DNA from: Gemmatimonadota bacterium
GTDB taxonomy: Bacteria; Gemmatimonadota; Gemmatimonadetes; Longimicrobiales; RSA9
Length of the DNA: 18,834 bases
Assembly: GCA_040905425.1 (NCBI GenBank)
Contig: JBBDRO010000017.1
Location: 36,331-55,164, forward strand
Direction of reading: 5' to 3'
Each line of letters begins with the position of its first letter. The stretch's first letter is position 1. Under the pieces are notes generated by a model that was not told where the DNA came from, ran no database searches, and worked only from the letters and a program-made list of their open reading frames with translations. Made by a program: the position numbers and the translations under genes. Of the stretch, positions 180-15,383 are shown in pieces.

Positions 180-461
180 TGGGACCTCCCGGGAGGGTAG
201 GAGTGCCGAGCGAAGGACTTCCATGGGTGTGACGCATGCCGGCGGTGACGTGTTGGAAGCGCCCCCACGAAAGTCGTGGACTGTAGGGGAATCTACCACC
301 CGGCCGCGCGATCCGCTCACCACAGATTTTCCGCCATCCCCCGACAGATCGCAGCGGCTCGCGCGCCTACCTTCTGGACCAGTAATCGGCGGCGGCCTCT
401 CCCAGCGCGGAGACCGACCGACCCGAAAGGCCGACCCCGACGCAACGGCCTGTGCACGGCG

Positions 462-487
462 CCCGCCGGCACGCTCGGGCTGGCGGG
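462..487 (+). other. GC-rich hairpin in the korA leader / divergent intergenic region
   Basis: CCCGCCGGC (462-470), 8-nt loop, GCTGGCGGG (479-487): 9-bp stem with one G-U pair, ~70 nt upstream of the korA start; no U-tract; function unknown. Confidence 0.3.
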
Positions 488-559
488 AGTCGATCTGGGA
501 GAGCCGCTGCATCACGAGCCACCCCGATAACTACCGAGTCCAGGACTGAAAGGCGGATC

Positions 560-2473
560 ATGGCCACCACAGAGGCCGGTCTCCGGGAGAGCCCGGGCAC
601 AGCCATGGCGCCAGCGGCGCCCACTCCGGTCCGTGTGGACCTCCACACGGTGGAAGTGGTCTCCGACGCCGGCGAAGGTGCGCAGAAATGCGGGCAGATC
701 TTCGGCTCCGTGTCCGCCAAGATGGGCAACGGGGTGTGGACGGTGGAGATCATCCCCGCCGAGATCCAACCCCCGCCGCGCAACGCCGAGGGCGCCAGCG
801 GCAACCGCATCCGCATCGGCTCGCGGGAGGTCACCAACTGGGGTGACGAGACGGACCTCATGGTGGCGTTCAACGAACAGGTTCTGCTGGGCCGCCATCA
901 CCTGGGTGCCATCGGCCAGGACGCCATCATCCTGCTGGAGGACATGTGGGCCACCCACGCCGACGCGGACATCCGCACGGCGTGGGCCGAGGCCATGGCG
1001 GAGCTCTCCGAGGCCAGCTACCGCATCGTGCTGGTGCCCATGGAGGAGCAGTGCCTCACCGTGGTGGACAACGCCCGCAAGGGCAAGAACATGTTTGCCC
1101 TGGGCATGCTGGCGTGGATCTACGACCGGGACGTGGAGCGCATCAAGGAAGAGATTGCCTTCCAGTTCCGCAAGAAGAGCCAGGAGATCTACGACCGCAA
1201 CGTGGAGCTCCTGGAGCTGGGCTACGGGTGGGCCGCCGAGCACCTGGACTTCCGCTTCGAGGTACCCGCAACCACGGATCAGACCGCCAAGGTGGTCATG
1301 AACGGCAACCAGGCCGCGGCGCTGGGCGCGGTGGCGGCCGGGATGGAGCTGGCGGCCATGTACCCCATCACCCCCGCCACCTCCGTTTCCCACCACCTGG
1401 GTGAGGTGTTCGAGACGTATGGCGGCATCGTGCATCAGGCGGAGGATGAGATCGCTGCCGTGGGCGTGGCCATCGGCGCCTCGTGGGCCGGCAAGGTGGC
1501 GTTCACCATCACCTCGGGGCCGGGCCTGGCGCTGAAGACGGAATTCCTGGGGCTGGCCGCCATGACCGAGACGCCGCTGGTGCTGCTGGACGTGCAGCGC
1601 GGCGGCCCCAGCACCGGGCTGCCCACCAAGGTGGAGCAGTCGGACCTGCTGGCGGCCATCTACGGCCAGCCGGGGGACGCGCCCCACGTGGTCATGGCGG
1701 CGGCCACCATCGAGGAGTGCTTCCACGCCATGATCACCGCCCGGCGCATCGCGGAGACCTTCCGCATGGTGGTCATGGTGCTCACGGACGCCAATCTGGC
1801 CACCGGCGTGCAGCCCTTCGCGCGGCCCGATCCGAGCACGGCATGGCAGGGCGCGCCCATCGATCTGTCCGCCCCACCCGAGGGGCTCCGGCCGTACGAC
1901 TGGGACACCCGGACCGGGCTCTCCCGCCGCTTCGTGCCGGGGATGGTGGGCGGCGCCCACACCGCCACCGGGCTGGCGCACGACGAGCGCAGCAAGGTGG
2001 CCTACGACGCCGCCACCGTGCAGCGCAGCCACGCCATGCGCAGCCGCAAGCTGGCGGTCTTCCAGCAGACGCTCCGCCCACCGGAGCTCTACGGCCCGGC
2101 GGAGGGTGACCTCCTGGTGGTGGGCTGGGGCAGCACCAAGGGCGCCATCGAGGAGGCGGTGGATCGGGGGCGCGCCGCGGGACTCGAAGTCTCCTCACTG
2201 CACCTGACCTTCCTGTCCCCGCTGCAGCCGGGCCTGAAGGAGATCTTCCAGCGCTTCGGCAGGGTCATGACGGTGGAGATCAACTACAGCGACGAGCCGG
2301 ACGACCCCTTCATCACGCCCGAGAACCGCCGCTACGGGCAGCTGGCGCTGCTGCTGCGGGCACAGACGCTCGTGGACGTGGATTGCTGGACGCGGGTGCT
2401 GGGCGAGCCGCTCCGACCGGGCGCCATCCTGCGCGCCATGCAAGCAAAGCTGACCAGGGGAGGTGCCGCGTGA
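560..2473 (+). CDS. korA: 2-oxoacid:ferredoxin oxidoreductase alpha subunit (gamma-alpha fusion, KorA/OorA type), 637 aa
   Basis: N-terminal gamma domain (SDAGEGAQKCG, KNMFALG); motifs GNQAAALG, YPITPA, QAEDEIAA, TSGPG, QRGGPSTGLPT, GWGST. Start placed at ATG 560 after GAAAGG, not at the track's 452. Substrate specificity not determinable. Confidence 0.92.
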   Translation: MATTEAGLRESPGTAMAPAAPTPVRVDLHTVEVVSDAGEGAQKCGQIFGSVSAKMGNGVWTVEIIPAEIQPPPRNAEGASGNRIRIGSREVTNWGDETDLMVAFNEQVLLGRHHLGAIGQDAIILLEDMWATHADADIRTAWAEAMAELSEASYRIVLVPMEEQCLTVVDNARKGKNMFALGMLAWIYDRDVERIKEEIAFQFRKKSQEIYDRNVELLELGYGWAAEHLDFRFEVPATTDQTAKVVMNGNQAAALGAVAAGMELAAMYPITPATSVSHHLGEVFETYGGIVHQAEDEIAAVGVAIGASWAGKVAFTITSGPGLALKTEFLGLAAMTETPLVLLDVQRGGPSTGLPTKVEQSDLLAAIYGQPGDAPHVVMAAATIEECFHAMITARRIAETFRMVVMVLTDANLATGVQPFARPDPSTAWQGAPIDLSAPPEGLRPYDWDTRTGLSRRFVPGMVGGAHTATGLAHDERSKVAYDAATVQRSHAMRSRKLAVFQQTLRPPELYGPAEGDLLVVGWGSTKGAIEEAVDRGRAAGLEVSSLHLTFLSPLQPGLKEIFQRFGRVMTVEINYSDEPDDPFITPENRRYGQLALLLRAQTLVDVDCWTRVLGEPLRPGAILRAMQAKLTRGGAA

Positions 2474-3414
2474 GCTGCTCACTGCTGGGCTGCGCCGTGG
2501 ATGACGACCGCGTCTTCGAGATGGACGACTACGAGGGCGCCATGGCCCGCTGGTGCCCGGGTTGCGGGGACCACTCCGTGCTCACGGCGGTGGAGAAGCT
2601 GCTCACCGCCGAACAGCTGCGGCCGGAGAACACGGTCTTCGTGTCGGGGATCGGCTGCTCGAGCCGCTTCCCGCACTATCTGAAGACCTTCGGTTTCCAC
2701 GGCCTGCACGGGCGCGCGCTGCCGGTGGCCACGGGCGTGAAGCTGAACCGGCCCGAACTGGACGTCTTCGTGGTCATGGGAGACGGGGACTGCACCTCCA
2801 TCGGCGCGGGCCACTGGCTGCACGCGGTGCGCTACAACATGAACCTCACCGCGCTGATGCTGGACAACAACATCTACGGGCTGACGAAGATGCAGACGTC
2901 ACCCACCACGCCGCAGGGCTTCAAGAGCAACACGCAGCCCACGGGCAGCTACCTGCCGGCGCTGAATCCCATCGAGGCCACGCTGGGCATCACCAACGCC
3001 TCCTTCGTGGCGCAGACGGCGGAGTGGATCCCCGCCCATCTCTACGCCACCATCGAGGCCGCCTATCGCCACAAGGGCTTTGCCTTCGTGCGCATCCTCC
3101 AGCGCTGCCCGGTCTTCACGCCGCTCATCTACGCCGAGGCGGTGCGGCGGCCGGACGTGGTGGAGTTGATGGTCCATGAGGACGGCGTGCAGGTCCCCTC
3201 GCTCGAGGCCACGTACAAGAACCGGATCGCGCATGACCCCCTCGACCTGGACGGGGCGCGGCGGCTGGCCGAGACGTCGGACCGCATCCGCCTGGGCGTG
3301 TTCTTCCGGGACGAGTCCCGGCCCCGCTACGAGGAACTGCGGCGCGTGGCCAGCAGGAGTGCGGAGGAAAAGGTGACGCTGCTCAACCAGGAGCTGGATC
3401 GCTATGCCGTCTGA
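2470..3414 (+). CDS. korB: 2-oxoacid:ferredoxin oxidoreductase beta (TPP-binding) subunit, 314 aa
   Basis: WCPGCGD, SGIGCSSR, HGR, GDGD...DNNIYG TPP/Mg motif, ILQRCP. GTG start overlaps the korA stop (GTGA 2470-2473), with a GGAGGT RBS upstream. Confidence 0.92.
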   Translation: MSCSLLGCAVDDDRVFEMDDYEGAMARWCPGCGDHSVLTAVEKLLTAEQLRPENTVFVSGIGCSSRFPHYLKTFGFHGLHGRALPVATGVKLNRPELDVFVVMGDGDCTSIGAGHWLHAVRYNMNLTALMLDNNIYGLTKMQTSPTTPQGFKSNTQPTGSYLPALNPIEATLGITNASFVAQTAEWIPAHLYATIEAAYRHKGFAFVRILQRCPVFTPLIYAEAVRRPDVVELMVHEDGVQVPSLEATYKNRIAHDPLDLDGARRLAETSDRIRLGVFFRDESRPRYEELRRVASRSAEEKVTLLNQELDRYAV

Positions 3415-4393
3415 GGATCGGACCACCCGGGCCCTGGCGGCGCTGGCCGCCCCGAGGGAGAGCTTTCACGCGGCGGTGGCCGCGGCCGTGGACCAGGTAC
3501 GCGCCCTGGTGGATGCGAACCGCGCGCCCGCGGCCGGTCCCGCCGCCCGTGCCGCGGACGGCCTGGGTGCCTTCGCGGCGGGCCGCATCGACGCCGAGCG
3601 CTTTGCCGGCCTCTTTGCCGGTGAGCGCGTGCTGGATGATCGCGCGCTGGACGGGATGGAGGCCGCGCTCGCGGTGCTCACCGAAACGGCGGCGGCCGCC
3701 GATGACGCCTATCGGGTGGACGTGCCCTCAGGCGGGTCGCTGGGGGTGGAGGTGGACCGGGTGCTGGCCCACCTGGGGCGCGCCTTTGCGGCGGCCCGGG
3801 CCGTGGAGAGGGCGCGCACGGGCGGAGCGGCCGGGGAGGATCCGGCGGCACCCTGGCCCTTTGCCCGCTGGAACCGGGCAGAGCGGGCCATCGCGCCGCC
3901 GCTCGTGGTGGAGGTGGACGGCGCCGACCTGGCCGCCGGCGGCCTGGCCGCCTTCCTGGACGGTGGGCAGAAGCTGGTCCTGGTGGTGCGCGGCCCGGCG
4001 GCGCCCGCCCCGCTCGTGGGCATGATCACGCCGGGCACGCTCGTACTGCAGGCCACCAGCCCGGCGGCGCTCGGCCAGCTGGACGGCTGGGACGGCCCGG
4101 CCGTGGCGGCGCTGCTGCCCGCGGGCGCGGCCGAGTTCGCGCACCGGCCGCTGGCGGGCCAGACGCTGCGGGAGCGGCTGGCGGTCACGGCACTGCCCGA
4201 CGCGGCGCCGGTGCGCTGGCTGGGCGGGCGCTCGCCCTGGCAGCAGGGTCAGGAGTTGGCGCAGCTGCGCTCGCTCGCGGCGGAAGGGGTAGCCCCGCAG
4301 CAAGCGCCCGCCGAGCCCGATCAGGATGTGCAGCCCACCGATCGGCTGGCCGCCTGGCTCCTGCGGCAGACCCATCTCCCCGACGTGGCGTAG
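3404..4393 (+). CDS. Hypothetical 329-aa protein; degenerate, Cys-free paralog of the C-terminal TPP-binding half of the adjacent PFOR
   Basis: Overlaps korB by 11 nt and ends 12 nt before rnfB; AGGAG upstream. Collinear by-eye similarity to the PFOR, e.g. AFAAARAVERARTGG vs AFVAVRRAELILDGG, ERAIAPPLVVEVDG vs EFQLCPPIMAIGGDG, QLRSLA vs QLRELA. Confidence 0.8.
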   Translation: MPSEDRTTRALAALAAPRESFHAAVAAAVDQVRALVDANRAPAAGPAARAADGLGAFAAGRIDAERFAGLFAGERVLDDRALDGMEAALAVLTETAAAADDAYRVDVPSGGSLGVEVDRVLAHLGRAFAAARAVERARTGGAAGEDPAAPWPFARWNRAERAIAPPLVVEVDGADLAAGGLAAFLDGGQKLVLVVRGPAAPAPLVGMITPGTLVLQATSPAALGQLDGWDGPAVAALLPAGAAEFAHRPLAGQTLRERLAVTALPDAAPVRWLGGRSPWQQGQELAQLRSLAAEGVAPQQAPAEPDQDVQPTDRLAAWLLRQTHLPDVA

Positions 4394-4405: not shown

Positions 4406-5260
4406 GTGCAACCGCTGCTGATCCTAAGTTCCGCCGCCATCCTGGGCGGTGTGGGGCTCACCTTTGGTGTGCTCATCGCCGCGGCCAACCGCAAGCTGCG
4501 CGTATGGGAGGATCCCCGCATCGACGCCGTCAATGACATGCTCCCCGGCGCCAACTGTGGCGCCTGCGGCTTTGCCGGCTGCCGGGCCTTCGCGGAGGCC
4601 ACGATCACCGGCCAGGTGGCGCCCGCCGTGTGCACCGTCATGGGTCCGGATGAGCGCCAGGACGTGGCCGCCTTCCTGGGCGTGGACGCGGGGCAGGCCA
4701 ACAAGCGAGTGGCGCGGCTGCTGTGCGCCGGCGGCAGTGACGTGGCGGTCCAGAAGGCCACCTACCGCGGGCTGGCCAGCTGCGCCGCCGCCGTGGCGGT
4801 GAGCGGGGGTGGGAAGGGATGCGCGTGGGGTTGCGTGGGCCTGGCCGACTGCGCCGTGGTCTGTGACTTCGACGCCATCACCATGAACGAGCACGACCTA
4901 CCGGTCGTGGATCCCGAGAAGTGCACGGCGTGCAACGACTGCGTGGAGGCCTGCCCGCTGGGCCTCTTCACGCTCATGCCCATGGATCAACACCTCCTCG
5001 TGCAGTGCCGCAACCTGCTGCACGGTGAGGACGCCACGGACGTCTGTGCCGTGGCCTGCAATGCCTGCGGACGCTGTGTACAGGACGCGGCGCCCGGCCT
5101 CATCGAGATGCGGACCAACCTGGCCGTGATCGACTACTCGAAGATCGAACTGGAGAACGCCGCCGCCATCGCGCGCTGCCCCACCGGTGCCATCACCTGG
5201 CTCGACGGGATGCAGTTCGCGGAGGAACCGGCCGCCCCAGCCGGGAGTGAAGCGCGATGA
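4406..5260 (+). CDS. rnfB: Rnf/Rsx electron transport complex subunit B (membrane-anchored polyferredoxin), 284 aa
   Basis: N-terminal TM helix; EDPRI...LPGANCGACGFAGC FeS domain; CAWGCVGLADCAVVCDFDAI, KCTACNDCVEACP, CNACGRC...CPTGAI; GTG start. Confidence 0.93.
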   Translation: MQPLLILSSAAILGGVGLTFGVLIAAANRKLRVWEDPRIDAVNDMLPGANCGACGFAGCRAFAEATITGQVAPAVCTVMGPDERQDVAAFLGVDAGQANKRVARLLCAGGSDVAVQKATYRGLASCAAAVAVSGGGKGCAWGCVGLADCAVVCDFDAITMNEHDLPVVDPEKCTACNDCVEACPLGLFTLMPMDQHLLVQCRNLLHGEDATDVCAVACNACGRCVQDAAPGLIEMRTNLAVIDYSKIELENAAAIARCPTGAITWLDGMQFAEEPAAPAGSEAR

Positions 5261-8200
5261 TCATGAAGCGGAAGTCCAACGCCCCCGAGTCCGGCCCTCG
5301 GTACCCCGGGGTCCCCGAAGCCACCGATGGCAGCGGCGCCGTAGTATACGTGGAGACGGCCGCCAGCGAGGCGGCGGGCGCGTATCCCATCACGCCGTCC
5401 ACCCAGATGGGTGAGGGGTGGGCGCTGGCCGTGGCGGCCGGCCACGAGAACGTGCACGGCCGGCGCCTGCTCTTCTTCGAGCCGGAGGGTGAGCACGCCG
5501 CGGCCGCGGTCACGGCGGGCATGAGCATGACCGGGCTCCGGGCCACGAACTTCTCCAGTGGCCAGGGCATAGCCTACATGCACGAGTCGCTCTACGCGGC
5601 GGTGGGCAAGCGCCTGACCTACGTGCTGAACGTGGCGGCGCGCGCCATGACCAAGCACGCGCTGAACGTGCACGCCGGCCACGATGACTACCACGCCGTG
5701 GATGACACCGGCTTCCTGCAGTTCTTTGCCAAGGACGTCCAGGAGACCGCCGATCTGACGCTCATCGCGCACCGCGCGGCGGAGCTCTCGCTGACGCCGG
5801 CGCTGGTGGCGCAGGACGGCTTCCTCACCAGCCACGTCATCGAGTCCATCAAGCTGCCGGAGCGGGAGCTCATCGCCGAGTACCTGGGTGATCCCGCGGA
5901 CATGATCGAGTGCCCCACGCCGGCGCAGCGGCTGACCTTCGGGCCCACGCGGCGGCGCATTCCCGAGATGTTCGACGTGGACTACCCGACCATGCTGGGG
6001 CCCGTGCAGAACCAGGACGCCTACGCCCAGGGCGTGGCCGCCCAGCGCCCCTTCTACTTCGATCACGCCCGCGCGTTGATCGACCGGTCCTTCGAGGAGT
6101 ACGCCGCGCTCACGGGCCGCCGCTACGAGCGGGTCATGGGCTACCGGCTGGAGGATGCTGAGTACGTCATCGCGGGGCAGGGCTCCGTGGTGCCGAACGC
6201 CGAGGCCGTGGTGGATTTCATGCGCGCGCAGGGCGTCAAGGTGGGCGTGCTGAACCTGACGCTCTTCCGGCCTTTCCCGGCCGACCTGGTCACGCAGCTG
6301 CTGCGCGGCAAGCAGGCCGTGGCCGTGCTGGAGCGCGTGGACCAGCCGCTGGCCGTGGACCCGCCGCTGCTGCGGGAGATCCGGGCCGCCTTCGGCCAGG
6401 CGCAGGAGAATGGCCGGGCCGAGGCCGTCAACGTCCGCAAGGGCCGCGGGGTGCCGGCCCTGGCCAAGCCGCACGCCGACCTGGCCTCGGTGCGCGCGGA
6501 CGAGCTGCCGGACTTCTACTCGGGCGGCTTCGGCTTTGGCAGCCGCGATCTGCAGCCGGGCGATATCGTGGCCGCGGTGCGGAACATGATGCCGGAGGGT
6601 GCGGGGCGTCGTCGCTTCTACCTGGGGCTGGACTTCATCCGCAAGGATACGAAGCTGCCCAAGCTGCAGGTCTGGCAGGAGGAGCTGCTGGAGAACTACC
6701 CGCACCTGGCCCACCTCTCCCTGGAGGCGGTGGAGGGCGTGGATCTGAGCGGCGAGGGATCGGTGGCGCTGCGCATCCACTCGGTGGGCGGGTGGGGCGC
6801 CATCACCACCGGCAAGAACGTGGCGCTCACCGCCTTCGAACTGGCGGGGCTGCACATCAAGGCCAATCCCAAGTACGGGTCCGAGAAAAAGGGGCAGCCC
6901 ACCACCTTCTACGCCACGCTCTCCCGCGAGCCGATCCGGGTGAACGCGGAGCTGAAGAACGTCAACGTGGTGCTCTCGCCCGATCCCAACGTCTTCCGCC
7001 ACTCCAACCCGCTCGCGGGGCTGGGGCAGGACGGCGTGTTCGTCATCCAGAGTGATCTCGAGCCGGCGGCCCTCTGGGCCGTGCTCTCGGAGGACGCCCG
7101 CCGCACGGTGCGGGAGAAGAACATCCAGGTCTACGTGCTGGACGGCTTCAGCATTGCCAACGAGGAGGCCAGCGATCCGGAGCTCCGCTACCGGATGCAG
7201 GGCGCTGCCTTCATGGGGGCCTTCTTCCGCACCGGACCCCTGGCCCGCAACGAGAACCTCTCCGAGGAGCGCATCTTCGAGGGCATCGAGACGCAGCTAC
7301 GCGCCAAGTTCGGCAAGCTGGGCGAGCGGGTCATCCAGGACAACGTGCGCGTCATCCGGCGGGGCTGGGACGAGGTCCTTCAGGTGGACACCAGCGTGGA
7401 GGTGGCGGTGGAGGCGGAGGTCCACGACACCATGCGGCCGATCCCCGCGCTGCTGAACCATCCCGACGCCGAGCAGGGGCTGGGCAATCCGGGCAGGTTC
7501 TTCGAGCAGGTGTGCGCCGTCTGCGCCGTGGGCCAGGACGTCATCGCGGATCCGTTCACCGCCGTGAGCGCCATGCCCGCCGCCAGCAGCAGCGTGCGGG
7601 ACATGACGGACATCCGCTTCGAGGTGCCCGACTTCATTGCGGAGAAGTGCACGGGCTGCAGCCAGTGCTGGGTGCAGTGCCCCGACGCGGCCATCCCGGG
7701 ACTGGTCACGCCCGTGGAGGACCTCATCGACCGGGCCATCGACCACGCCGCCAACGGCCGCGCACTGGAGCGAGTACGGCAGATCTCCAAGCACCTTGCC
7801 AAGGAGTCAAGGAAGGTGATGGAGGCGGTGCCGTTCCACGACTTCGGCCAGGTGGTCTCCGCCGCCTACCACAACGTGGCGGACAAGCTGGGCTGGGAGC
7901 CGGAGCGGCGCGCCGAGCTGGACGAACAGTTCGCGGCCGTGCACTCCGTGCTTGCCGAGTTCCCGCTGGCCCGGACCGCGCCCTTCTATGACGTGCACGA
8001 GGGCAAGGCCAAGGGGACCGGAGGCCTCCTCTCCATCACCATCAATCCCGAGGCGTGCAAGGGCTGCAACATCTGCGTGGAGGTGTGCCCCGAGAACGCC
8101 CTGATCACCATCAAGCAGGACGAGGAGGTGGTGGAGCGGCTGCGCCGCAACTGGAACTTCTGGGAGGCGCTGCCCGACACGTCGGACCGCTACGTCAACG

Positions 8201-10362
8201 TGAGCAACGTGGACGAGGGCATCGGCGTGCTGAGTTCGCTGCTGCTGAAGAAGAAGACGTACCGCTCCATGGTGGGCGGAGACGGCGCCTGCATGGGCTG
8301 CGGTGAGAAGACCACGGTCCACCTGGTGACGAGCACCATCGAGGCGCTCATGCAGCCCCGCGTGAAGCGCTTCGTGGCCCGCCTGGAGGAGCTCATCGGC
8401 CGGCTGGACGAGCAGGCGCGGGACCTCCTCTCCGCGGATGCGGACCTGGATCTGGCGGCGCTCGCGGAGGGCGCGCATGTGGACGTGCCGCTGGACGACG
8501 GGAAGCGGGAGACGCTGCAGCGCATCGTCGCCACGCTGAAGGCGCTGCGGGATCTCAAGTGGCGCTATGAGGACGGCCCGAGCGGCGAGGGGCGCGCCAG
8601 CATGGGCATCACGAACAGCACCGGGTGCTCGTCGGTGTGGGCCAGCACCTACCCCTACAACCCGTATCCGTATCCCTGGGCCAACCACCTCTTCCAGGAC
8701 GCGCCCTCGCTGGCCATCGGCGTCTTCGAGGGGCACATGCGGAAGATGGCGGACGCCTTCGTGGCGGTGCGCCGGGCGGAGCTCATCCTGGACGGCGGCT
8801 ACGACGCCGTGCGCGACGAGCCGTTCTTCACCGCCTTCGACTACCGGGAGTTCACCGACGAGGAGTTCCAGCTGTGCCCGCCCATCATGGCCATCGGCGG
8901 GGACGGGGCCATGCTGGACATCGGCTTCCAGAACCTCTCGCGGCTGCTGGCCTCCGGCAAGCCGATCCGCGTCATGGTGCTGGACACGCAGGTCTACTCG
9001 AACACGGGCGGCCAGGCGTGCACCAGCGGCTTCACCGGCCAGGTGGCCGACATGTCCGCCTACGGCAAGGCGCAGCATGGCAAGACGGAGACGCGCAAGG
9101 AACTGGCGCTGCTCGCGCTGGCGCACCGCGGCGCCTTCGTGCACCAGTCATCCCAGGCCAACGCCAGCCACCTCATCGCGGGCGTCATCAAGGGCCTGAA
9201 CTCGCGGCGCCCGGCCGTCTTCAACATCTACACGCCGTGCCCGGTGGAGCACGGGCTGCCCGACGAGTGGGCGCCCTACGGCGCCAAGCTGGCGCTGGAA
9301 TCGCGCGCCTTCCCGTTCATGACCTATGACCCGGACGGCGGCGCCTCCATCGCGGAGTGCATCTCCCTGGAGGGCAACCCGGCCATCGACGACCCGTGGC
9401 CCACCTACGAGCTCACCTTCGTGAATGACGAGGGGGAGGAGGAGACGCTGGAGCTGCCGCTATCCACCGCCGACTGGGCGGCCACGGAGGGCCGCTTCAA
9501 GAAGCACTTCAAGGAGCTGAAGCGGGAGGCGTGGACCGAGGACATGGTGCCCTTCCACGAGTTCGTCTTCATGGGTGCGGCGGAGCGTGAGGGCAAGGAG
9601 CCCTTCATCCACGCCCTGGGCAAGGACCGCCAGCTGGTGCGCAAGTCCGTGTCCATGGAGATGGTCACGCTGGCGGAGGACCGGCTGCTCTTCTGGGGCC
9701 AGCTCCGGGAGCTGGCCGGCCTGGCCGCGCCCGAGGTGGTACGGGACGCCGTGCGTGATCAGCTGGAGGCCGAGTTCGATGCCCGCGCGGAGGCGCTCAG
9801 GACCGAGTACGAGGGCCGCATGGCGGAGCTGAAGGCCGCCTACCCGCCGCTCATCGCGCGGCGCATGGCGGAGGGCCTCCTCAAGGCCGGCGCCGGCGAC
9901 CGCACGGTGGCCGAGCTGCTGGAGGTGGCGGACCGGACCCCGGGCCTGCAGCCCATCCGTCTCTCGGACATCTCCTCCGCGCTGGCCGCCGAGCCGGCGC
10001 CCTCCGGCAACGGCGGCGGCGTGGCCGTGGCGGAGGCGCCGGCGGCGGTGGAGGCCGGTGCGGCGCCCGCCCCCGCGCCGGCCGCGGTGGAGGAGGATGA
10101 GGACGGCGGCCTGGCCATGGAGCCGTACATCGACACGGCCCGCTGCACCACGTGCAACGAGTGCACGAACCTGAACGGCAAGATGTTCGCCTACAATGAG
10201 GACAAGCAGGCCTACATCAAGGACCCGAAGGCCGGCACCTTCGCGCAGCTCGTGCAGGCCGCGGAGCGCTGCCCGGCGGCACTCATCCACCCCGGCACGC
10301 CGCTCAATCCCAAGGAGAAGGACCTGGAGAAGTGGCTCAAGCGGGCGGAGCCGTTCAGCTGA
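5257..10362 (+). CDS. por: Single-chain pyruvate:ferredoxin/flavodoxin oxidoreductase (Por/NifJ-like), unusually large (1701 aa), with C-terminal tethered ferredoxin
   Basis: AYPITPST, EGEHAA, VGGWGAITTGKN, YGSEKKGQPT, two CxxCxxCxxxCP motifs (7648-7683, 8056-8091), ACMGCGEK, STGCSSVW, GGDGAMLDIGFQN, DTQVYSNTGGQ, YTPC. ATGA overlap with the rnfB stop. Pyruvate specificity is inferred from the family. Confidence 0.9.
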   Translation: MIMKRKSNAPESGPRYPGVPEATDGSGAVVYVETAASEAAGAYPITPSTQMGEGWALAVAAGHENVHGRRLLFFEPEGEHAAAAVTAGMSMTGLRATNFSSGQGIAYMHESLYAAVGKRLTYVLNVAARAMTKHALNVHAGHDDYHAVDDTGFLQFFAKDVQETADLTLIAHRAAELSLTPALVAQDGFLTSHVIESIKLPERELIAEYLGDPADMIECPTPAQRLTFGPTRRRIPEMFDVDYPTMLGPVQNQDAYAQGVAAQRPFYFDHARALIDRSFEEYAALTGRRYERVMGYRLEDAEYVIAGQGSVVPNAEAVVDFMRAQGVKVGVLNLTLFRPFPADLVTQLLRGKQAVAVLERVDQPLAVDPPLLREIRAAFGQAQENGRAEAVNVRKGRGVPALAKPHADLASVRADELPDFYSGGFGFGSRDLQPGDIVAAVRNMMPEGAGRRRFYLGLDFIRKDTKLPKLQVWQEELLENYPHLAHLSLEAVEGVDLSGEGSVALRIHSVGGWGAITTGKNVALTAFELAGLHIKANPKYGSEKKGQPTTFYATLSREPIRVNAELKNVNVVLSPDPNVFRHSNPLAGLGQDGVFVIQSDLEPAALWAVLSEDARRTVREKNIQVYVLDGFSIANEEASDPELRYRMQGAAFMGAFFRTGPLARNENLSEERIFEGIETQLRAKFGKLGERVIQDNVRVIRRGWDEVLQVDTSVEVAVEAEVHDTMRPIPALLNHPDAEQGLGNPGRFFEQVCAVCAVGQDVIADPFTAVSAMPAASSSVRDMTDIRFEVPDFIAEKCTGCSQCWVQCPDAAIPGLVTPVEDLIDRAIDHAANGRALERVRQISKHLAKESRKVMEAVPFHDFGQVVSAAYHNVADKLGWEPERRAELDEQFAAVHSVLAEFPLARTAPFYDVHEGKAKGTGGLLSITINPEACKGCNICVEVCPENALITIKQDEEVVERLRRNWNFWEALPDTSDRYVNVSNVDEGIGVLSSLLLKKKTYRSMVGGDGACMGCGEKTTVHLVTSTIEALMQPRVKRFVARLEELIGRLDEQARDLLSADADLDLAALAEGAHVDVPLDDGKRETLQRIVATLKALRDLKWRYEDGPSGEGRASMGITNSTGCSSVWASTYPYNPYPYPWANHLFQDAPSLAIGVFEGHMRKMADAFVAVRRAELILDGGYDAVRDEPFFTAFDYREFTDEEFQLCPPIMAIGGDGAMLDIGFQNLSRLLASGKPIRVMVLDTQVYSNTGGQACTSGFTGQVADMSAYGKAQHGKTETRKELALLALAHRGAFVHQSSQANASHLIAGVIKGLNSRRPAVFNIYTPCPVEHGLPDEWAPYGAKLALESRAFPFMTYDPDGGASIAECISLEGNPAIDDPWPTYELTFVNDEGEEETLELPLSTADWAATEGRFKKHFKELKREAWTEDMVPFHEFVFMGAAEREGKEPFIHALGKDRQLVRKSVSMEMVTLAEDRLLFWGQLRELAGLAAPEVVRDAVRDQLEAEFDARAEALRTEYEGRMAELKAAYPPLIARRMAEGLLKAGAGDRTVAELLEVADRTPGLQPIRLSDISSALAAEPAPSGNGGGVAVAEAPAAVEAGAAPAPAPAAVEEDEDGGLAMEPYIDTARCTTCNECTNLNGKMFAYNEDKQAYIKDPKAGTFAQLVQAAERCPAALIHPGTPLNPKEKDLEKWLKRAEPFS

Positions 10363-11735
10363 TGTTCAAGCCGCCTTCGCTGGTCCAGCTTCCCGGGGTG
10401 CGCGGCATGGCGGCCCGGCCCGGTTTCCGGCACGGCGTGCATCCGCCGGACGCCAAGGAACTGTCCAGGGCCAGGACCATCCGGCGCATGCCTTTCCCGG
10501 CGGAGGTGGTGCTCCCGCTGCGGCAGCACACGGGCAAGCCGGCCCGGCCGCTGGTGAAGCCCGGCGACCGGGTGGAACGCGGGGACAAGATCGCGGCCGC
10601 CGACGGCTTCGTGTCCGTGCCCATCCACGCCTCGGCGGCGGGGGTGGTGAAGTCCATCGGCTGGTGGCCGCACGCCGACGGCACCATGGCCGAGGCCATC
10701 CGCATCCAGGTGGCGCGCTTCAGCGCCCAGCTGCCGCGGCCGCGCATGGTGCCGCACTGGGAGGGGCTCACCCCCGCCCAGGTGGTGGCGGCCGTACAGG
10801 AGGCGGGCGTGGTGGGGCTGGGCGGCGCCGCCTTCCCCGCGCACGTGAAGCTGCAGCCGCCGCCGGACTGCCCGATCGAATTCCTGCTCGTCAACGGCGC
10901 CGAGTGCGAGCCCTACCTGACCAGCGACCACCGGGTCATGGTGGAGTACGCGGAGCGCGTCTGGTTCGGCGTGCGCATCATGATGCACGCGCTGGGCGTG
11001 CCCCGGTGCGTGGTGGGCGTGGAGAAGAACAAGCCGGACGCCATCGAGGCGCTCCGGGCCGCCGCGCCCACTGGTCTGGACGTGCGCGTGGAGGCGCTCA
11101 CGGTGAAGTATCCGCAGGGCGCCGAGAAGATGCTCATCCACGCTGTCACGGGGCGCGAGGTGCCCTCGGGCAAGCTGCCCATGCACGTGGGCACCGTGGT
11201 GCAGAATGTGGGCTCGATTGCCGCCATTGCCGAGGTCTTCGAGACGGGCATGCCGCTCGTGGAGCGCATCGTCTCGGTCACCGGCCCCGCCATCAAGGAC
11301 CCGCAGAACCTCATCGTGCCCGTGGGCACCAAGCTGCGCGACGTGCTGGACTACTGCGGCGGGCTCACGGAGGACGTGGCGGAGATCGTCTTCGGCGGCC
11401 CCATGATGGGCATTGCCCAGCCGGATCTGGACGCGCCACTCATCAAGGGCACGAGCGGCGTGGTGGCCCTCACGAAGGCGCAGGCGCGGCCGCGCACGGT
11501 GCACCCCTGCATCCAGTGCGCGCGCTGCCTGGACGCCTGCCCGGTCTTCCTGAACCCATCCAAGCTGGGGCGGCTGGCGCAGGCCGGCCGCTACGAGGAG
11601 ATGGCCAAGCACCACCTGGCCGACTGCATGCTGTGCGGCTCGTGCTCCTACGTGTGCCCGTCCAGCATTCCGCTGTCCCAGATGTTCGCCCTGGCCAAGG
11701 CGGCCGAGCGCCGCAGGAAAGAGCAGGCCGCGTGA
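10362..11735 (+). CDS. rnfC: Rnf/Rsx complex subunit C (NAD/FMN-binding, 2x[4Fe-4S]), 457 aa
   Basis: GVHPP, PLRQHTG, PIHAS, AGVVGLGGAAFP, NGAECEPYLTSD, KYPQGAEK, GGPMMG, CIQCARCLDACP, CMLCGSCSYVCPS. TGATG overlap with the por stop. Confidence 0.95.
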   Translation: MFKPPSLVQLPGVRGMAARPGFRHGVHPPDAKELSRARTIRRMPFPAEVVLPLRQHTGKPARPLVKPGDRVERGDKIAAADGFVSVPIHASAAGVVKSIGWWPHADGTMAEAIRIQVARFSAQLPRPRMVPHWEGLTPAQVVAAVQEAGVVGLGGAAFPAHVKLQPPPDCPIEFLLVNGAECEPYLTSDHRVMVEYAERVWFGVRIMMHALGVPRCVVGVEKNKPDAIEALRAAAPTGLDVRVEALTVKYPQGAEKMLIHAVTGREVPSGKLPMHVGTVVQNVGSIAAIAEVFETGMPLVERIVSVTGPAIKDPQNLIVPVGTKLRDVLDYCGGLTEDVAEIVFGGPMMGIAQPDLDAPLIKGTSGVVALTKAQARPRTVHPCIQCARCLDACPVFLNPSKLGRLAQAGRYEEMAKHHLADCMLCGSCSYVCPSSIPLSQMFALAKAAERRRKEQAA

Positions 11736-12823
11736 GCACGGTGGACCGGGCCACTGCAGCCGCGCGCCTGCGGGGCATCCCCGGGCCCGGCGCGGGGCGG
11801 GGCGCCAGCGAGCGCACGCCCGACTGGGGCCGTGTGGCGCTGCAGCTCACCGCCTCCCCGCACATCAAGGCGCCCGACAGCACCGAGCGCATCATGTGGA
11901 CGGTGGTGGCCAGCCTGCTGCCCGTGGTGCTGGCGGCTGGCTGGTACTTCGGCGTGAGCGCCTGGCTGGTGATCGGCACCGCCACCGTGGGCGCGGTGGG
12001 CACCGAGCGGCTGCTCAGCGGCGGCGCAGCCGTACGGGACGGCTCGGCGGCCATCACCGGCATCCTCCTGGGGCTCACGCTGCCGGCGGGCATGCCGCTG
12101 TGGATGGCGCTGCTCGGCGGCGTGTTCGGCATTGCTTTCGGCAAGCTGCTCTTTGGCGGGCTCGGGCAGAACGTGTTCAACCCCGCGCTCGTGGGGCGGG
12201 CTTTCCTGCAGGCGGCCTTCCCGGTGGCCATCACCACCTGGCCGGCGCCCCGCCAGGGCTTCCTGGCGCAGGTGGGGGACACCTTCGCGCTGCCGCTCAT
12301 GAGCCCGGCCGTGGACGTCACCACCACCGCCACGCCGCTGGCGGAGATGAAGTTCGAGGGCACTACCACGGCGCTGAATGACCTGGTGCTGGGCAGTACA
12401 GCCGGTTCGCTGGGCGAGACGGCGGGCATCCTCATCCTGCTGGGCGGCGCCTACCTGGCGCTCCGCAACTATCTGGACTGGCGCATTCCGGTGGGCATCC
12501 TGGGGACGGTGGCGCTGCTCTCGGCGGCGCTCAACCTGGTGGACCCCGCGTTCCCCGATCCGCTCTTCATGATCTTTTCCGGCGGGTTGCTGCTGGGCGC
12601 GGTCTACATGGCCACGGACATGGTCACCTCTCCGGTCACCCGCGCCGGCGCCTGGATCTTCGCGGCGGGGATCGGCTTCCTGGTGGTGCTCATCCGCGTG
12701 TGGGGCGGGCTGCCGGAGGGGGTCATGTACGCCATCCTGCTCATGAACGCCATGGTGCCCTTCATCGACCGGGCCACCCAGCCCCGGGTGTTCGGCACCG
12801 TCCGCGGCAGGGAGGGCGCGTGA
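11732..12823 (+). CDS. rnfD: Rnf/Rsx complex subunit D, 363 aa
   Basis: SPHI, DGSAAITG, KLLFGGLGQNVFNPALVGRAFL, FMN-attachment site DVTTTATPL, GSLGET, ATDMVTSP, PEGVMYAILLMN. GTGA overlap with rnfC. Only the last 363 aa of the track's 875-aa ORF. Confidence 0.95.
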   Translation: MSTVDRATAAARLRGIPGPGAGRGASERTPDWGRVALQLTASPHIKAPDSTERIMWTVVASLLPVVLAAGWYFGVSAWLVIGTATVGAVGTERLLSGGAAVRDGSAAITGILLGLTLPAGMPLWMALLGGVFGIAFGKLLFGGLGQNVFNPALVGRAFLQAAFPVAITTWPAPRQGFLAQVGDTFALPLMSPAVDVTTTATPLAEMKFEGTTTALNDLVLGSTAGSLGETAGILILLGGAYLALRNYLDWRIPVGILGTVALLSAALNLVDPAFPDPLFMIFSGGLLLGAVYMATDMVTSPVTRAGAWIFAAGIGFLVVLIRVWGGLPEGVMYAILLMNAMVPFIDRATQPRVFGTVRGREGA

Positions 12824-13503
12824 GCACGCAGCCCGTACCCGGCAACGGCCCTGGGGTGGCGGAGGTGCAGTCCTGGCGGCTGGTCACCACGCTGGCGGTG
12901 GCGGGGATGCTCGCGGGGCTGCTCATCGTGCTGGTCTTCCAGTGGGCGCACCCGCGCATCCTGGATCACCAGGAGCGTGCCGTCACGGCCGCCGTGGACG
13001 TGGTCCTCTCCGCGCCGGAGCGGACGGAGCGCTACTTCGTGGTCGACGGTGAGCTCCGCGCCGAGGCCCCCGAGGGCAGTGACACCCTCAGACTGGAGCG
13101 GGTCTTCCTGGGCTTCGACGCGTCCGATGCACCGATAGGCTACGCGGTGCGCGGCGGGGAGGCGGGCTTCCAGGACATCATCACCGTGCTCTTCGGCTAC
13201 CACCCCGCGCGCGACGAGGTGCTGGGCATGCTGGTGCTGGACAACAAGGAGACCCCCGGCCTGGGAGACAAGATCGTCAAGGACACGGCGTTCGTGGCGG
13301 CGTTCCAGGGTGTGCGCGCGCCGATCCAGGGCGTCAAGGCGCGGGCGGGCAGCGGCGCGGAAACCGAGGTGGACATGATCACCGGCGCCACCATCTCCTC
13401 GCGCGCCGTCATCGACATCATCAACCACCGCATCGAGGCGCTCGGGCCCATTCTGAAGCGTCATCTGGAAACGCGGGTAGCCGGCAGTGGAGCGTCCACA
13501 TGA
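12820..13503 (+). CDS. rnfG: Rnf/Rsx complex subunit G, 227 aa
   Basis: N-terminal TM helix, GFQDII, ETPGLGDKI, covalent-FMN motif DMITGATISSRAV. GTGA overlap with rnfD after GGAGG. Confidence 0.93.
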   Translation: MSTQPVPGNGPGVAEVQSWRLVTTLAVAGMLAGLLIVLVFQWAHPRILDHQERAVTAAVDVVLSAPERTERYFVVDGELRAEAPEGSDTLRLERVFLGFDASDAPIGYAVRGGEAGFQDIITVLFGYHPARDEVLGMLVLDNKETPGLGDKIVKDTAFVAAFQGVRAPIQGVKARAGSGAETEVDMITGATISSRAVIDIINHRIEALGPILKRHLETRVAGSGAST

Positions 13504-14192
13504 GGGCCACGACCCCGACGGAGGACCTGCTCCGCGGCATCTGGCGGGAGAACCCCGTGCTGATCCAGCTCCTGGGGCTGTGCCCCGCGCTGGCGGTCAC
13601 CAACACCGTGGCCAACGGCATTGCCATGGGGCTGGCCACCACTTTCGTGCTGCTGGGCTCCAGCCTCCTGGTCTCCCTGCTGTCCGACTACATCCCCAAG
13701 GAAGTGCGCATCAGCGCCTACATCCTGATCATCGCCACCTTCGTGACGCTGGTGGACCTGATCCTGGCGGCGGTGGTGCCTGACATCCACAAGGCGCTGG
13801 GCGCCTTCATTGCGCTCATCGTGGTGAACTGCATGATCCTGGGCCGCCAGGAGGCGTTCGCGTCCCGGCGCCCGGTGGGCCGGGCCCTGCTGGATGCCGC
13901 GGGCACGAGCGCGGGCTTCATGATCGCGCTGCTCCTGATGAGCGGCTTCCGCGAGCTGCTCGGCAACGGCTCGCTCCTGGGCGTGGACGTCATGGGCCCC
14001 GGCTTCGAGCCCTGGATCATCATGATCCTGCCCGCCGGCGGCTTCTTCATGCTGGGCTTCATCCTGCTGGCGCTGGCCTGGTGGCAGGGGCGCGCCCAGC
14101 CGCCGGTCAAGCCGCGGCGCTGGCCGAACGGCGTGACCACGACCACGCATGCCAACGCCGCCCCGCGCGAGCGTGACAAGGTGGTGGCCTGA
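13500..14192 (+). CDS. rnfE: Rnf/Rsx complex subunit E, 230 aa
   Basis: ENPVLIQLLGLCPALAVT, EVRI, LIVVNCMILGR, RELLGNG, ILPAGGF. ATGA overlap with rnfG. Confidence 0.95.
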   Translation: MRATTPTEDLLRGIWRENPVLIQLLGLCPALAVTNTVANGIAMGLATTFVLLGSSLLVSLLSDYIPKEVRISAYILIIATFVTLVDLILAAVVPDIHKALGAFIALIVVNCMILGRQEAFASRRPVGRALLDAAGTSAGFMIALLLMSGFRELLGNGSLLGVDVMGPGFEPWIIMILPAGGFFMLGFILLALAWWQGRAQPPVKPRRWPNGVTTTTHANAAPRERDKVVA

Positions 14193-14767
14193 TGAATGAG
14201 CTGATCTGGATCCTGATCAGCGCCATGGTGGTCAACAACTTCACCCTGGCCCTCTTCCTGGGACTGTGTCCCTTCCTGGGTGTGTCCGGGCGCGTGGCCA
14301 CGGCGCTCCGCATGGGCGCGGCCAACATCTTCGTCATGGTCATCACGTCGCTGGCCGCGTGGTTCCTGAACAGCTACGTGCTGGCCGACGCGCCCTACCT
14401 GCGCATCATCTCCTTCATCGTGGTGATCGCCTCGCTGGTGCAGATCGTGGAGATGGCCATCAAGAAGCTGAGCCCCGCGCTCTTCCGGGAGCTGGGCATC
14501 TTCCTGCCGCTCATCACCACCAACTGCGCCATCCTGGGCCTGGCCATCTTCCAGACCAATCGTGGCTACGGACTGGCGGAAGGGCTCTTCTTTGCCGTGG
14601 GCGCCGGCCTGGGTGTGACCCTGGCCCTGGTGCTCATGGCTTCCATCCGCGAGCGCATCGAGCTCTCGGACGTTCCGGCGCTGGCCCGCAACATGGGGCT
14701 GGTGCTCATTCTGGCCGGCACGCTGTCGCTGGCCTTCACCGGCTTCGCGGGATTGTTCAGCTCATGA
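14192..14767 (+). CDS. rnfA: Rnf/Rsx complex subunit A, 191 aa
   Basis: VNNFTLALFLGLCPFLGVS, LGIFLPLITTNCAILG, IRER, LSLAFTGFAG. TGATG overlap with rnfE. Confidence 0.95.
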   Translation: MNELIWILISAMVVNNFTLALFLGLCPFLGVSGRVATALRMGAANIFVMVITSLAAWFLNSYVLADAPYLRIISFIVVIASLVQIVEMAIKKLSPALFRELGIFLPLITTNCAILGLAIFQTNRGYGLAEGLFFAVGAGLGVTLALVLMASIRERIELSDVPALARNMGLVLILAGTLSLAFTGFAGLFSS

Positions 14768-14913
14768 TCGAACCCCTGATCGGCATAGGCATCTTCGCCG
14801 CGCTCTTCGCGGCGTTCGGCGCTCTCAAGCCCCGGAGCTGCGGCAGCGGGAGCTGCGGCGCCTGCTCCGGCGGCCCGTGCTCGTACGAGAAGTCCGGGGA
14901 GGGGAATCCGTGA
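14764..14913 (+). CDS. 49-aa single-TM Cys-rich small protein (NqrM-like or FeoB-associated Cys-rich peptide-like architecture)
   Basis: ATG overlaps the rnfA stop (ATGA 14764-14767). MIEPLIGIGIFAALFAAFGALKPRSCGSGSCGACSGGPCSYEKSGEGNP: hydrophobic helix followed by Cx4Cx2Cx4C. Confidence 0.72.
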   Translation: MIEPLIGIGIFAALFAAFGALKPRSCGSGSCGACSGGPCSYEKSGEGNP

Positions 14914-14996
14914 TGGCGCCCGACGACTGTCCGGTCCGTCCCGGCTTCCAGCCCGCCGCTTCCAGTGACGCCGCCCGACGGCGGCAGGAGGACAGA

Positions 14997-15383
14997 ATGG
15001 AGACCCAGACCGCCTACTGCTCCGCGTGCGACCAGCAGGTGCGCATCGTGGTGACGCCCCAGCCGGTGCACGGCGGCCAGGCCACGCTGGATGACGGCCC
15101 CGACGTGGTGTGCCTGGATTTCGGCCACAAGTGCACCGGCTCCCTGTGCCCCATGTTCGGCCTGCCGCGCATCCTCATGGGGGTGAAGCTGGCGCAGAGC
15201 GGCCTCAAGCCGGACGAGGAGTGGGAGTCCTTCCGCGCCCCCTGCCAGGGGTGCTCTCAGATGGTGGACCTCCGCATCATCGACGCGCTCTACGCCCTGT
15301 GCCCCTCCTGCTCCGCGCGCAACCGCTACGCCCGGGTCACCGTGGGTGACGAGCAGTACGTGGGGCTGGCCCAGGAGCCCTGA
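14997..15383 (+). CDS. Hypothetical 128-aa Cys-rich (zinc-ribbon-like) protein
   Basis: AGGAGG RBS at 14986-14991 before ATG 14997; CSAC, CLDFGHKCTGSLC, CQGC, CPSC. Alternative in-frame starts at 14910 (GTG) and 14913 (ATG) overlap the upstream stop. Confidence 0.75.
   Translation: METQTAYCSACDQQVRIVVTPQPVHGGQATLDDGPDVVCLDFGHKCTGSLCPMFGLPRILMGVKLAQSGLKPDEEWESFRAPCQGCSQMVDLRIIDALYALCPSCSARNRYARVTVGDEQYVGLAQEP

Follow-up and report, generated by a model that had tools for sequence, protein, structure and literature searches.

An 18,834-nucleotide stretch of DNA from a Gemmatimonadota bacterium (assembly GCA_040905425.1, contig JBBDRO010000017.1, positions 36,331 to 55,164; referred to here as the window) encodes a 1701-amino acid (aa) protein that resembles pyruvate:ferredoxin oxidoreductase (PFOR) and ends in a long helix, a linker predicted to be disordered, and a domain of the single-cluster ferredoxin type. 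The start of its gene overlaps the rnfB stop codon (ATGA) and its stop codon overlaps the ATG of rnfC (TGATG), and the gene is therefore built into the operon for the Rnf complex. We consider it probable that the protein is a single-chain 2-oxoacid:ferredoxin oxidoreductase (OFOR) in which the physiological ferredoxin has been built in as a mobile arm that reaches Rnf. PFOR, ferredoxin, and Rnf are textbook parts, thought to be linked by a free, diffusing pool of ferredoxin, and canonical PFOR works with a ferredoxin or flavodoxin that is a separate, free protein.

In the proposed mechanism, a folded block and the long helix after domain VI would anchor the tail, probably lying on the enzyme dimer. 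Electrons from the thiamine pyrophosphate (TPP) site would pass three internal clusters, and the tethered ferredoxin would pick them up at the distal cluster and swing to the cluster-rich C-terminal domain of RnfB. This multi-cluster domain is where cytoplasmic ferredoxin delivers its electrons (excerpts of PMC12174285), and Rnf would hand the electrons on to NAD+ while pumping Na+ or H+. By arithmetic (42 x 3.6 Å), an arm of about 42 residues would reach about 150 Å when fully extended. The same arm would probably also serve the pocket of KorAB, encoded upstream in the same block and lacking a ferredoxin domain of its own; two-subunit OFORs have no domain V, and they present an open pocket into which a ferredoxin from outside would fit (excerpts of PMC5020499). 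The net result would be a self-contained, energy-conserving 2-oxoacid:NAD+ oxidoreductase whose low-potential electrons never enter the pool of free ferredoxin, in a host that respires oxygen as well.

Anatomy of the ferredoxin tail

An earlier note on this DNA, made from the letters alone, had described a charged helix, an Ala/Pro-rich linker, and a small C-terminal ferredoxin domain with a single cluster. This anatomy holds, and the motifs quoted for it are all found in the open reading frame (ORF) at 5257-10362: QLRELAG at residues 1482-1488 (nt 9700-9720), an Ala/Pro stretch that begins at residue 1577 and closes with EEDEDGG at 1612-1618, CTTCNEC at 1630-1636 (nt 10144-10164), and ERCP at 1670-1673 (nt 10264-10275). 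Two of its boundaries have to be moved. QLRELAG had been taken for the usual end of PFOR, but the match to solved PFORs already ends near residue 1360, and QLRELAG lies within a compact alpha/beta block. Residues 1420-1488 have no sequence match in the PDB, either alone or as a profile, and PDB searches with residues 1330-1500 and with a pre-tail profile returned nothing besides the ferredoxin match. Weak apolipoprotein A-I rows in a PDB search (E 0.7-0.9) reflect amphipathic helix composition only and were set aside. The charged helix, placed at residues 1501-1526 (nt 9757-9834), is indeed there but had been drawn too short.

We modeled residues 1420-1701 with AlphaFold2 (AF2) from a 56-row alignment (mean predicted local distance difference test, pLDDT, 85.6; predicted template modeling score, pTM, 0.44) and compared the model with an alignment of 120 homologous tails. 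The block at 1420-1486 is predicted with high confidence as strands and helices (pLDDT 92-98) and is conserved in the 120 tails. It leads into a single 52-residue helix at 1493-1544 (pLDDT 86-98), which occurs in both of the paralog classes described below; where the earlier note had named a coiled coil, the model gives this one long helix. About 50 conserved, partly helical residues (1527-1577) separate the helix as first drawn from the linker, with short helices at 1551-1560 and 1569-1577 (pLDDT 67-79; partly conserved). The disorder expected of the linker in an AlphaFold model is indeed predicted: residues 1580-1619 have a pLDDT of 44-50, a prediction of disorder, and lie between confident domains. 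Conserved blocks flank the linker on both sides; the linker itself is unconserved and gap-rich, is composed mainly of A (31%), P (12%), E (12%), and G (11%), and varies in length from 38 to 71 aa (median 54), with about 42 aa in the window protein.

The final 82 residues form the ferredoxin domain, modeled at pLDDT 93-98 (89 at the last residues). Pfam assigns residues 1625-1678 to Fer4_13 (E 1.7e-6; 29.1 bits against a cut-off of 24.5), as the earlier note had expected, and this is the sole Pfam match in the tail, which contains neither a Biotin_lipoyl nor a PP-binding domain. All four predicted cluster ligands, C1630, C1633, C1636, and C1672 (the last followed by P1673), are present in 120/120 tails. 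The domain also carries a conserved C-terminal extension of 25 aa (HPGxPxNPxE...RAxxF). Its best solved relative is ferredoxin I of Desulfovibrio africanus (1DAX/1FXR), found with the single sequence at E 1.5e-4 and with a 69-row profile of the domain at E 3.7e-9 (1DAX); Foldseek aligned the AF2 model to 1FXR over 58 columns (E 2.7e-4, target TM 0.84, root mean square deviation 0.9 Å), followed by other monocluster ferredoxins. By motif, family, and predicted fold, the last domain is thus placed among the monocluster ferredoxins (Fer4_13).

The PFOR-like catalytic core

Residues 1-1419 contain the domains of PFOR in the PFOR order: POR_N (35-258), PFOR_II (301-391), POR (511-703), Fer4 (787-813 and 927-949), and TPP_enzyme_C (1209-1323). 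The best solved relative of this core is the PFOR of M. thermoacetica (6CIN; E 2.9e-91), to which it aligns in five stretches, with three inserts of about 100 aa near residues 384-483, 822-920, and 1027-1115. One of these inserts sits between the two cluster motifs of domain V.

The catalytic motifs are intact and conserved. G1215-D1216-G1217, N1249, and C1012/C1015/C1124 are each found in 46/46 members of the clade; all eight cysteines of domain V are present, as is C1328, which we take to be the fourth ligand of the proximal cluster. In domain I, T46 (103/104), E79 (104/104), and R129 (104/104) align to residues of 6CIN and presumably bind TPP and the substrate carboxylate, as in the D. africanus structure. 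The domain-I Arg and Thr are named in excerpts of PMC5020499. Because these motifs are intact, we read the 1701-aa protein as a putative active PFOR-type 2-oxoacid:ferredoxin oxidoreductase, with pyruvate as its probable substrate.

The tailed protein in the Gemmatimonadota

The tail was present in 751 proteins in a word-seeded search that covered protein lengths of 935-2977 aa. Most of the 120 that were listed are 1,640-1,738 aa long and the rest look truncated; the named entries among these 120 are labeled Gemmatimonadota or Longimicrobiales. Of 301 evenly sampled Gemmatimonadota genomes, 53 (34/128 genera) contain the tail and 64 RnfC_N, and 49 open frames of 1,674-2,011 aa carry the tail in Gemmatimonadota genomes other than that of the window. 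Across nine families (f1-f9), every rnfC-bearing genome has the tail (51/51), and in 50 of the 51 rnfC lies on the same strand within 0.4 kb downstream of it. Two genomes with a tail match are without rnfC; in G267 the match is a contig-end fragment, and in G136 it is to a PFOR-like gene without the ferredoxin. The latter gene (G136:C1, L106) has no kor or rnf neighbors. Among 16 fetched Gemmatimonadota loci, the order korA-korB-relic-rnfB-PFOR with ferredoxin is kept in 15, and rnfC through rnfA follow in 14. The proposal that a tethered ferredoxin serves both PFOR and Rnf thus gains comparative support from the gene overlaps, the 51/51 co-occurrence, the variable linker, and the tandem modules described below.

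The earlier note had also asked whether homologs have the ferredoxin domain split off as a separate gene. We found no clean case of this: matches below 320 aa in the tail search mostly have no start Met or include upstream-tail or frameshifted sequence, and they look like fragments. In the sister class f10 (G002, G008, G011, G014, G017, and others), small free ferredoxins were considered as a stand-alone form of the tail domain; four of the five genomes tried gave matches in frames of 66-164 aa (E 2.7e-4 to 8.1e-10), of which one contains an internal stop, but these are weak profile matches and not close homologs, and the candidates were rejected.

Catalytically dead carriers of the same module

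An exhaustive search with the tail returned 1279 representatives at 50% identity, 240 of them at E<=1e-30. Among the best 150 of the 1279 are 57 complete proteins of 780-900 aa whose sole Pfam match is a C-terminal Fer4_13. One such protein, compared by BLASTP, aligns to residues 1001-1701 of the PFOR-like protein at 30% identity. In this 840-aa class, G1215, G1217, N1249, Cys1012, and Cys1124 are lost in 40/40 examined, with an Asp left at position 1216 in 4/40 and a Cys at position 1015 in 9/40. Judging from these losses, the 840-aa proteins are predicted dead copies of domain VI that bear the same helix, linker, and ferredoxin. In the ESM Atlas, the class is found only in clusters labeled 'hypothetical protein'.

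At least 558 stretches in species-representative genomes encode the 840-aa class. We kept 80 of these loci, from Proteobacteria, Bacteroidota, Rhodothermota, Calditrichota, Acidobacteriota, Chloroflexota, Actinomycetota, Verrucomicrobiota, and others; the 79 with a ferredoxin-tail match are the basis of the counts that follow. RnfD matches in the locus comparisons were off-frame hits on homologous DNA and are left out. Where 3.5 kb or more of upstream sequence is available (62 loci), the tailed dead relic directly follows korB in 59, so that the aside in the earlier note about a possible role for KorAB as a second electron donor turned out to name the strongest link across the family. rnfB follows the relic in 31 of the 69 loci with at least 1.2 kb downstream; among the 47 with at least 8 kb downstream, rnfB was found in 19, a long PFOR-like gene in 18, and rnfC in 17.

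The Rnf-linked loci also contain 19 long PFOR-like proteins, encoded between rnfB and rnfC (L014, L015, L017, L018, L024, L030, L035, L036, L049, L055-L057, L065, L076, L077, L079, L085, L086, L089). They come from other phyla than the window protein and end 82-169 aa past domain VI, with the helix present and no ferredoxin domain. T46, E79, and the four proximal-cluster cysteines are each found in 0/19, GDG in 2-5/19, and N1249 in 1/19, and the TPP_enzyme_C match is missing in all six that were scanned; the eight cysteines of domain V are all kept in 19/19. These proteins are, by their motifs, predicted pseudo-enzymes. Since the tail is found on either the dead relic or the PFOR, there is exactly one tethered ferredoxin per operon, and its carrier is one or the other of two paralogs. 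From the same motifs, the clade of the window protein appears to be where the carrier has remained an active enzyme.

The window contains a remnant of the second carrier as well. Its 329-aa ORF (3404-4393) has no match in the PDB, Pfam, NCBIfam, or the ESM Atlas, and full-length homologs with 39-53% identity occupy the same slot in 15 of the 16 Gemmatimonadota loci. With hhalign, the 16-member family of this ORF aligned to the 840-aa class (probability 98.7, E 3e-16, 258 columns) and to PFOR domain VI plus tail (probability 98.4, E 5e-15, residues ~1032-1378). On the strength of these profile matches, the ORF is an equivalent of the 840-aa carrier that lacks the N-terminal part and the tail; one possibility is that it acts as a docking adaptor.

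Loci without Rnf have a different partner. In the four examined, each from a different lineage (Table 1), genes for an NfnA-like protein (DHODB_Fe-S_bind) and an NfnB/GltD-like protein (Fer4_20 and Pyr_redox_2) lie directly upstream of korA; downstream of the no-Rnf loci there are unrelated genes. The module thus seems, from its gene neighborhoods, always to travel with KorAB and an NAD(P)-linked ferredoxin oxidoreductase, either the membrane-bound Rnf or a soluble Nfn-like enzyme. In 3 of the 150 best representatives (P0132, P0176, P0187), two ferredoxin modules follow one another in tandem, and a Pro/Ala/Glu linker precedes each of them; such an arrangement suits a mobile carrier and would be hard to explain for a fixed wire. 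In an unrooted tree of the 84-aa ferredoxin domain (69 rows), the 15 PFOR-fused domains form one clade (support 95/96), nested in a starred set that also includes carrier domains from Rnf-linked loci in Bacteroidota and Gammaproteobacteria, and the Nfn-linked domains form one clade of 21 rows (99/92). Because the alignment has few columns and the tree has no root, it cannot tell which carrier is ancestral.

These comparisons allow a broader reading, which we put forward tentatively and with less confidence than the mobile arm itself. The ten genes of the block could encode one membrane-bound supercomplex of 2-oxoacid:NAD+ oxidoreductase and ion pump, in which KorAB, the PFOR-like protein, and the relic would sit on Rnf and the single tethered ferredoxin would be the only moving carrier. 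The helix, linker, and ferredoxin could then be a portable module, shared by active PFOR, dead half-PFOR, and tandem forms and plugged into Rnf or NfnAB, and the PFOR-derived proteins in most phyla could be pure scaffolds or wires for KorAB.

Competing explanations and the direction of electron flow

Several points weigh against the built-in arm to Rnf. The earlier note had called the protein a PFOR; the family resemblance stands, but its score in the NCBIfam PFOR equivalog TIGR02176 (408.6 bits) is well under the cut-off of 911.35. We therefore file it as PFOR-like, where 'PFOR' denotes family resemblance and does not imply a substrate, and the low score together with the three inserts means that substrate and partners could differ. 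The disorder of the linker is a prediction and not a measurement. The genomes behind the co-occurrence counts are related to one another, so that the counts do not represent independent events, and in G279 (G279:C84, L097) rnfC lies about 15 kb from the tailed PFOR. In f10, rnfC is present in 13/13 genomes and the tail in 0/13, so that Rnf does not need the tail. The window's own genome, a metagenome-assembled genome of 115 contigs, encodes two E2-type 2-oxoacid dehydrogenases, which makes the need for a PFOR route less evident, and it also contains at least one frame that could encode a free ferredoxin (86 aa, Fer4) and a flavodoxin-like gene; the tether therefore need not be the only carrier.

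A search of this genome with the tail domain as the query found no paralogous free copy, and Fer4_13 has one other match, in a 287-aa frame. Three more OFOR alpha-type genes lie beside Fer4_20 (GltD/NfnB-like) matches (C96:11605-14497, C67:15100-17423, C46:12535-14337); these pairs hint at other OFOR-NAD(P) modules.

The alternative that survives best concerns direction. NADH and the ion gradient could, via Rnf, reduce the tethered ferredoxin and so drive reductive carboxylation by the PFOR-like enzyme as pyruvate synthase and by KorAB as 2-oxoglutarate synthase, for anaplerosis or CO2 fixation. Both OFORs and Rnf are reversible (excerpts of PMC12174285 and PMC13768988), dead-relic loci occur in sulfur-oxidizing Chromatiales and in symbiont metagenome-assembled genomes (L017, L030, L073), and korAB with rnf has been discussed for the reverse tricarboxylic acid cycle in such organisms (excerpts of PMC6315080); a tether would also help to keep a scarce carrier of very low potential at the carboxylases. 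Set against this is the genome itself, which has four heme-copper oxidase (COX1) genes, the two E2-type dehydrogenases, and no NifH. The last of these also indicates that Rnf is not there for nitrogenase. Nothing points to autotrophy, for which ATP-citrate lyase and other markers were not searched. We consider the reductive route unlikely as the main direction; it would in any case alter the direction of flow and not the role of the tether. The hardware is reversible and, because of the oxidases, the dehydrogenases, and the missing NifH, we lean toward the oxidative direction.

A second alternative keeps the ferredoxin in the electron path but denies it mobility: the domain could be docked permanently on PFOR domain V, RnfB, or KorAB as a fourth fixed cluster, with the linker a mere spacer. 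The strong conservation of the domain and its 25-aa extension is what a permanent interface would lead one to expect, and fixed ferredoxin-like domains are common in Fe-S enzymes. Yet the linker ranges over 38-71 aa with no conservation of sequence, the AF2 model gives the domain no fixed placement (pTM 0.44, linker pLDDT <50), tandem modules exist, and the same module is borne by two different carrier proteins, all of which makes permanent docking rather improbable.

It is highly improbable that the tail, in place of carrying electrons to a partner, has a regulatory or protective role, for instance by sensing redox state or O2 or by acting as a shield. The C-terminal arm of D. africanus PFOR (domain VII) does protect against O2 (excerpts of PMC13768988 and PMC5020499), and the host of the window protein respires oxygen. 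However, the domain has all the parts of a ferredoxin, and of the very kind that D. africanus PFOR has as its redox partner; it persists on dead carriers, where there is no catalysis to shield; and the module is always found alongside an NAD(P)-linked ferredoxin oxidoreductase.

Finally, a frameshift, an assembly chimera, or read-through into a separate ferredoxin gene, conceivable in a metagenome-assembled genome, is rejected, given the 751 tailed relatives, the 49 open frames in other genomes, and a contig, assembled in that study from a different sample, that covers the whole junction (9412-10500) with 3 differences and 0 gaps and so shows that the fusion is not an assembly artefact.

The gene block and other features of the window

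The window (about 70% G+C) carries a co-directional block, korA-korB-relic-rnfB-PFOR-rnfCDGEA, whose features are collected in Table 1. KorA exceeds the NCBIfam cut-off (TIGR03710, 528 bits against 482.75), and KorB falls below its own (TIGR02177, 239.6 against 261.9). Neither has a Fer4 match in Pfam, which fits a two-subunit alpha-beta OFOR of the KorAB type, and the earlier statement that KorAB has no ferredoxin domain or delta subunit here is borne out by Pfam and NCBIfam. All six subunit genes of Rnf were found with Pfam, and rnfB, rnfC, rnfD, and rnfE exceed their NCBIfam cut-offs: RnfB scores 74.4 bits in TIGR01944 (cut-off 68.7) and has 20 cysteines invariant in 48 homologs, and RnfD and RnfE score 311 (TIGR01946) and 218.7 bits (TIGR01948). 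RnfA (TIGR01943, 220 bits, cut-off 229.3) and RnfG (TIGR01947, 93 bits, cut-off 102) are just below theirs.

Table 1. Features of the gene block and the tailed protein on the window, and the Nfn-linked loci of other lineages (coordinates of the latter refer to their own loci).
Feature	Position	Strand	Evidence
korA-type 2-oxoacid:acceptor oxidoreductase alpha subunit (domains III-I-II)	452..2473 (ORF limits; true start uncertain)	+	Pfam POR and POR_N
korB-type beta subunit (TPP-binding domain VI type)	2383..3414 (ORF limits)	+	Pfam TPP_enzyme_C and PFO_beta_C
Cofactor-less relic of PFOR domain VI, 329 aa (P0272), no tail, no ferredoxin	3404..4393	+	hhalign
rnfB, electron-input subunit of Rnf	4406..5260	+	Pfam FeS and Fer4
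PFOR-like protein, 1701 aa, with ferredoxin tail	5257..10362	+	ORF, Pfam
PFOR-like core, residues 1-1419, domains I, II, III, V, VI	5257..9513	+	Pfam, 6CIN alignment
Family-specific compact alpha/beta block, residues 1420-1493, contains QLRELAG	9514..9735	+	AF2
Long amphipathic charged helix, residues 1493-1544	9736..9888	+	AF2
Short helical segment, residues 1545-1578, lower confidence	9889..9990	+	AF2
Predicted disordered Ala/Pro/Gly/Glu linker, residues ~1579-1619, acidic patch at end	9991..10113	+	AF2
Predicted single-[4Fe-4S] ferredoxin domain, residues 1620-1701 (82 aa), plus stop	10114..10362	+	Fer4_13
rnfC (ATG at 10362)	10362..11735	+	Pfam RnfC_N, Complex1_51K, SLBB, Fer4; TIGR01945 521 bits
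rnfD	11849..12823	+	Pfam, NCBIfam
rnfG	12700-13503	+	Pfam; NCBIfam 93 bits, just below cut-off 102
rnfE	13500-14192	+	Pfam, NCBIfam
rnfA	14192-14767	+	Pfam; NCBIfam 220.1 bits, just below cut-off 229.3
nfnA-nfnB-korA-korB-carrier loci, four lineages	L039 4359-6920, L051 4584-7037, L060 4463-6987, L082 4695-7103		Pfam

A scan for promoters and terminators gave chance-level results inside the operon. The only sigma-70-like match in the window is a promoter-like site at 15410-15439, ahead of a gene after the operon for a DsbD-type thiol:disulfide interchange protein (DsbD_N, DsbD_TM, Thioredoxin_7; 15506-17836, + strand). The ORFs at 1-549 (+) and 17924-18832 (+) and those on the minus strand at 12604-13464, 13461-14150, and 14757-15419 have no Pfam match; the minus-strand ORFs at 12604-13464 and 13461-14150, which overlap rnf genes, are probably chance frames of high-G+C DNA.

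Relation to known systems

The core resembles the homodimeric PFORs (6CIN; D. africanus 1B0P/7PLM; NifJ/YdbK type) in its single chain with domains I, II, III, V, and VI, its TPP motif (GDG...N), the cysteines of the proximal cluster, the two clusters of domain V, and the Thr, Glu, and Arg of domain I. Unlike them, it is about 500 aa longer, with its three inserts and a 280-aa tail bearing a fourth cluster domain, it misses the TIGR02176 cut-off, and it is encoded inside an rnf operon. The domain VII arm of D. africanus PFOR lies over the other subunit (excerpts of PMC5020499). KorAB has the architecture of StOFOR (excerpts of PMC5020499), with domains III-I-II in alpha and VI in beta and neither domain V nor a delta subunit. 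The tail domain shares CxxCxxC...CP, Fer4_13, and fold with D. africanus ferredoxin I (1FXR/1DAX/1DFD) and the ferredoxins of P. furiosus, T. maritima, and B. thermoproteolyticus, but whereas free monocluster ferredoxins have about 60 aa, it forms the end of a 1701-aa enzyme and has the additional 25-aa extension.

As a device, the arm recalls the lipoyl arms of E2 and those of acyl and peptidyl carrier proteins (ACP/PCP), which likewise have a small carrier on a long Ala/Pro-rich linker of variable length, in tandem in some relatives. The cargo differs, being an electron on an Fe-S cluster and not a covalently bound acyl group, and there is no sequence relation; the ferredoxin arm may thus work like these swinging arms, presumably visiting several sites, without being a member of their class. 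In RnfB and NqrF, flexibly tethered ferredoxin-like domains shuttle single electrons between fixed sites (excerpts of PMC12174285). The small Fe-S domain on a flexible tether is common to both cases; here the arm belongs to the donor enzyme and not to the input subunit of the pump.

Fusions of an electron partner to the C-terminus of an enzyme are known from pyruvate:NADP+ oxidoreductase of Euglena and Cryptosporidium, a PFOR with a C-terminal reductase, and we know of no fusion of this type, or of the CYP51fx type, with a carrier that is a dead paralog. CYP51fx of Methylococcus capsulatus is a P450 with a C-terminal ferredoxin (excerpts of PMC7947880). Both differ from the window protein in partners and direction, and neither is known to lie in an rnf operon. 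The three-subunit 2-oxoglutarate:NADP+ oxidoreductase KorABC of Azoarcus evansii wires a KorAB-type enzyme to NAD(P) by an extra flavoprotein and is not known to involve Rnf; the extra part here is a tethered ferredoxin.

In the full-text literature, outside subscription journals and supplements, we came across no account of a PFOR with a ferredoxin tail, nor of the related dead carriers. The excerpts of a review of PFOR diversity (PMC13768988, November 2026) and of a 2025 review of Rnf and Nqr (PMC12174285) likewise describe no ferredoxin-tailed PFOR.

Implications

PFORs in aerobes have been called enigmatic in a recent review (excerpts of PMC13768988). The arm described here probably hard-wires 2-oxoacid oxidation to an ion pump in a mostly aerobic bacterial group. 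If so, a built-in arm would make 2-oxoacid oxidation a closed, ion-pumping route to NADH, which would conserve more of the energy than the pyruvate dehydrogenase reaction does and would keep low-potential electrons from being lost to oxygen or to side reactions. Such an arrangement is common, with 751 long-form protein clusters, 1279 tailed representatives, and at least 558 dead-carrier loci. Should the supercomplex and portable-module reading be true, it would define an undescribed class of hard-wired ferredoxin circuits, and the supercomplex could explain how O2-sensitive chemistry of very low potential is carried out in oxygen-respiring bacteria. The family would also provide a natural test bed for electron channeling, and circuits with a tethered ferredoxin, for use in engineered CO2 fixation or NADH supply, could be designed after it.

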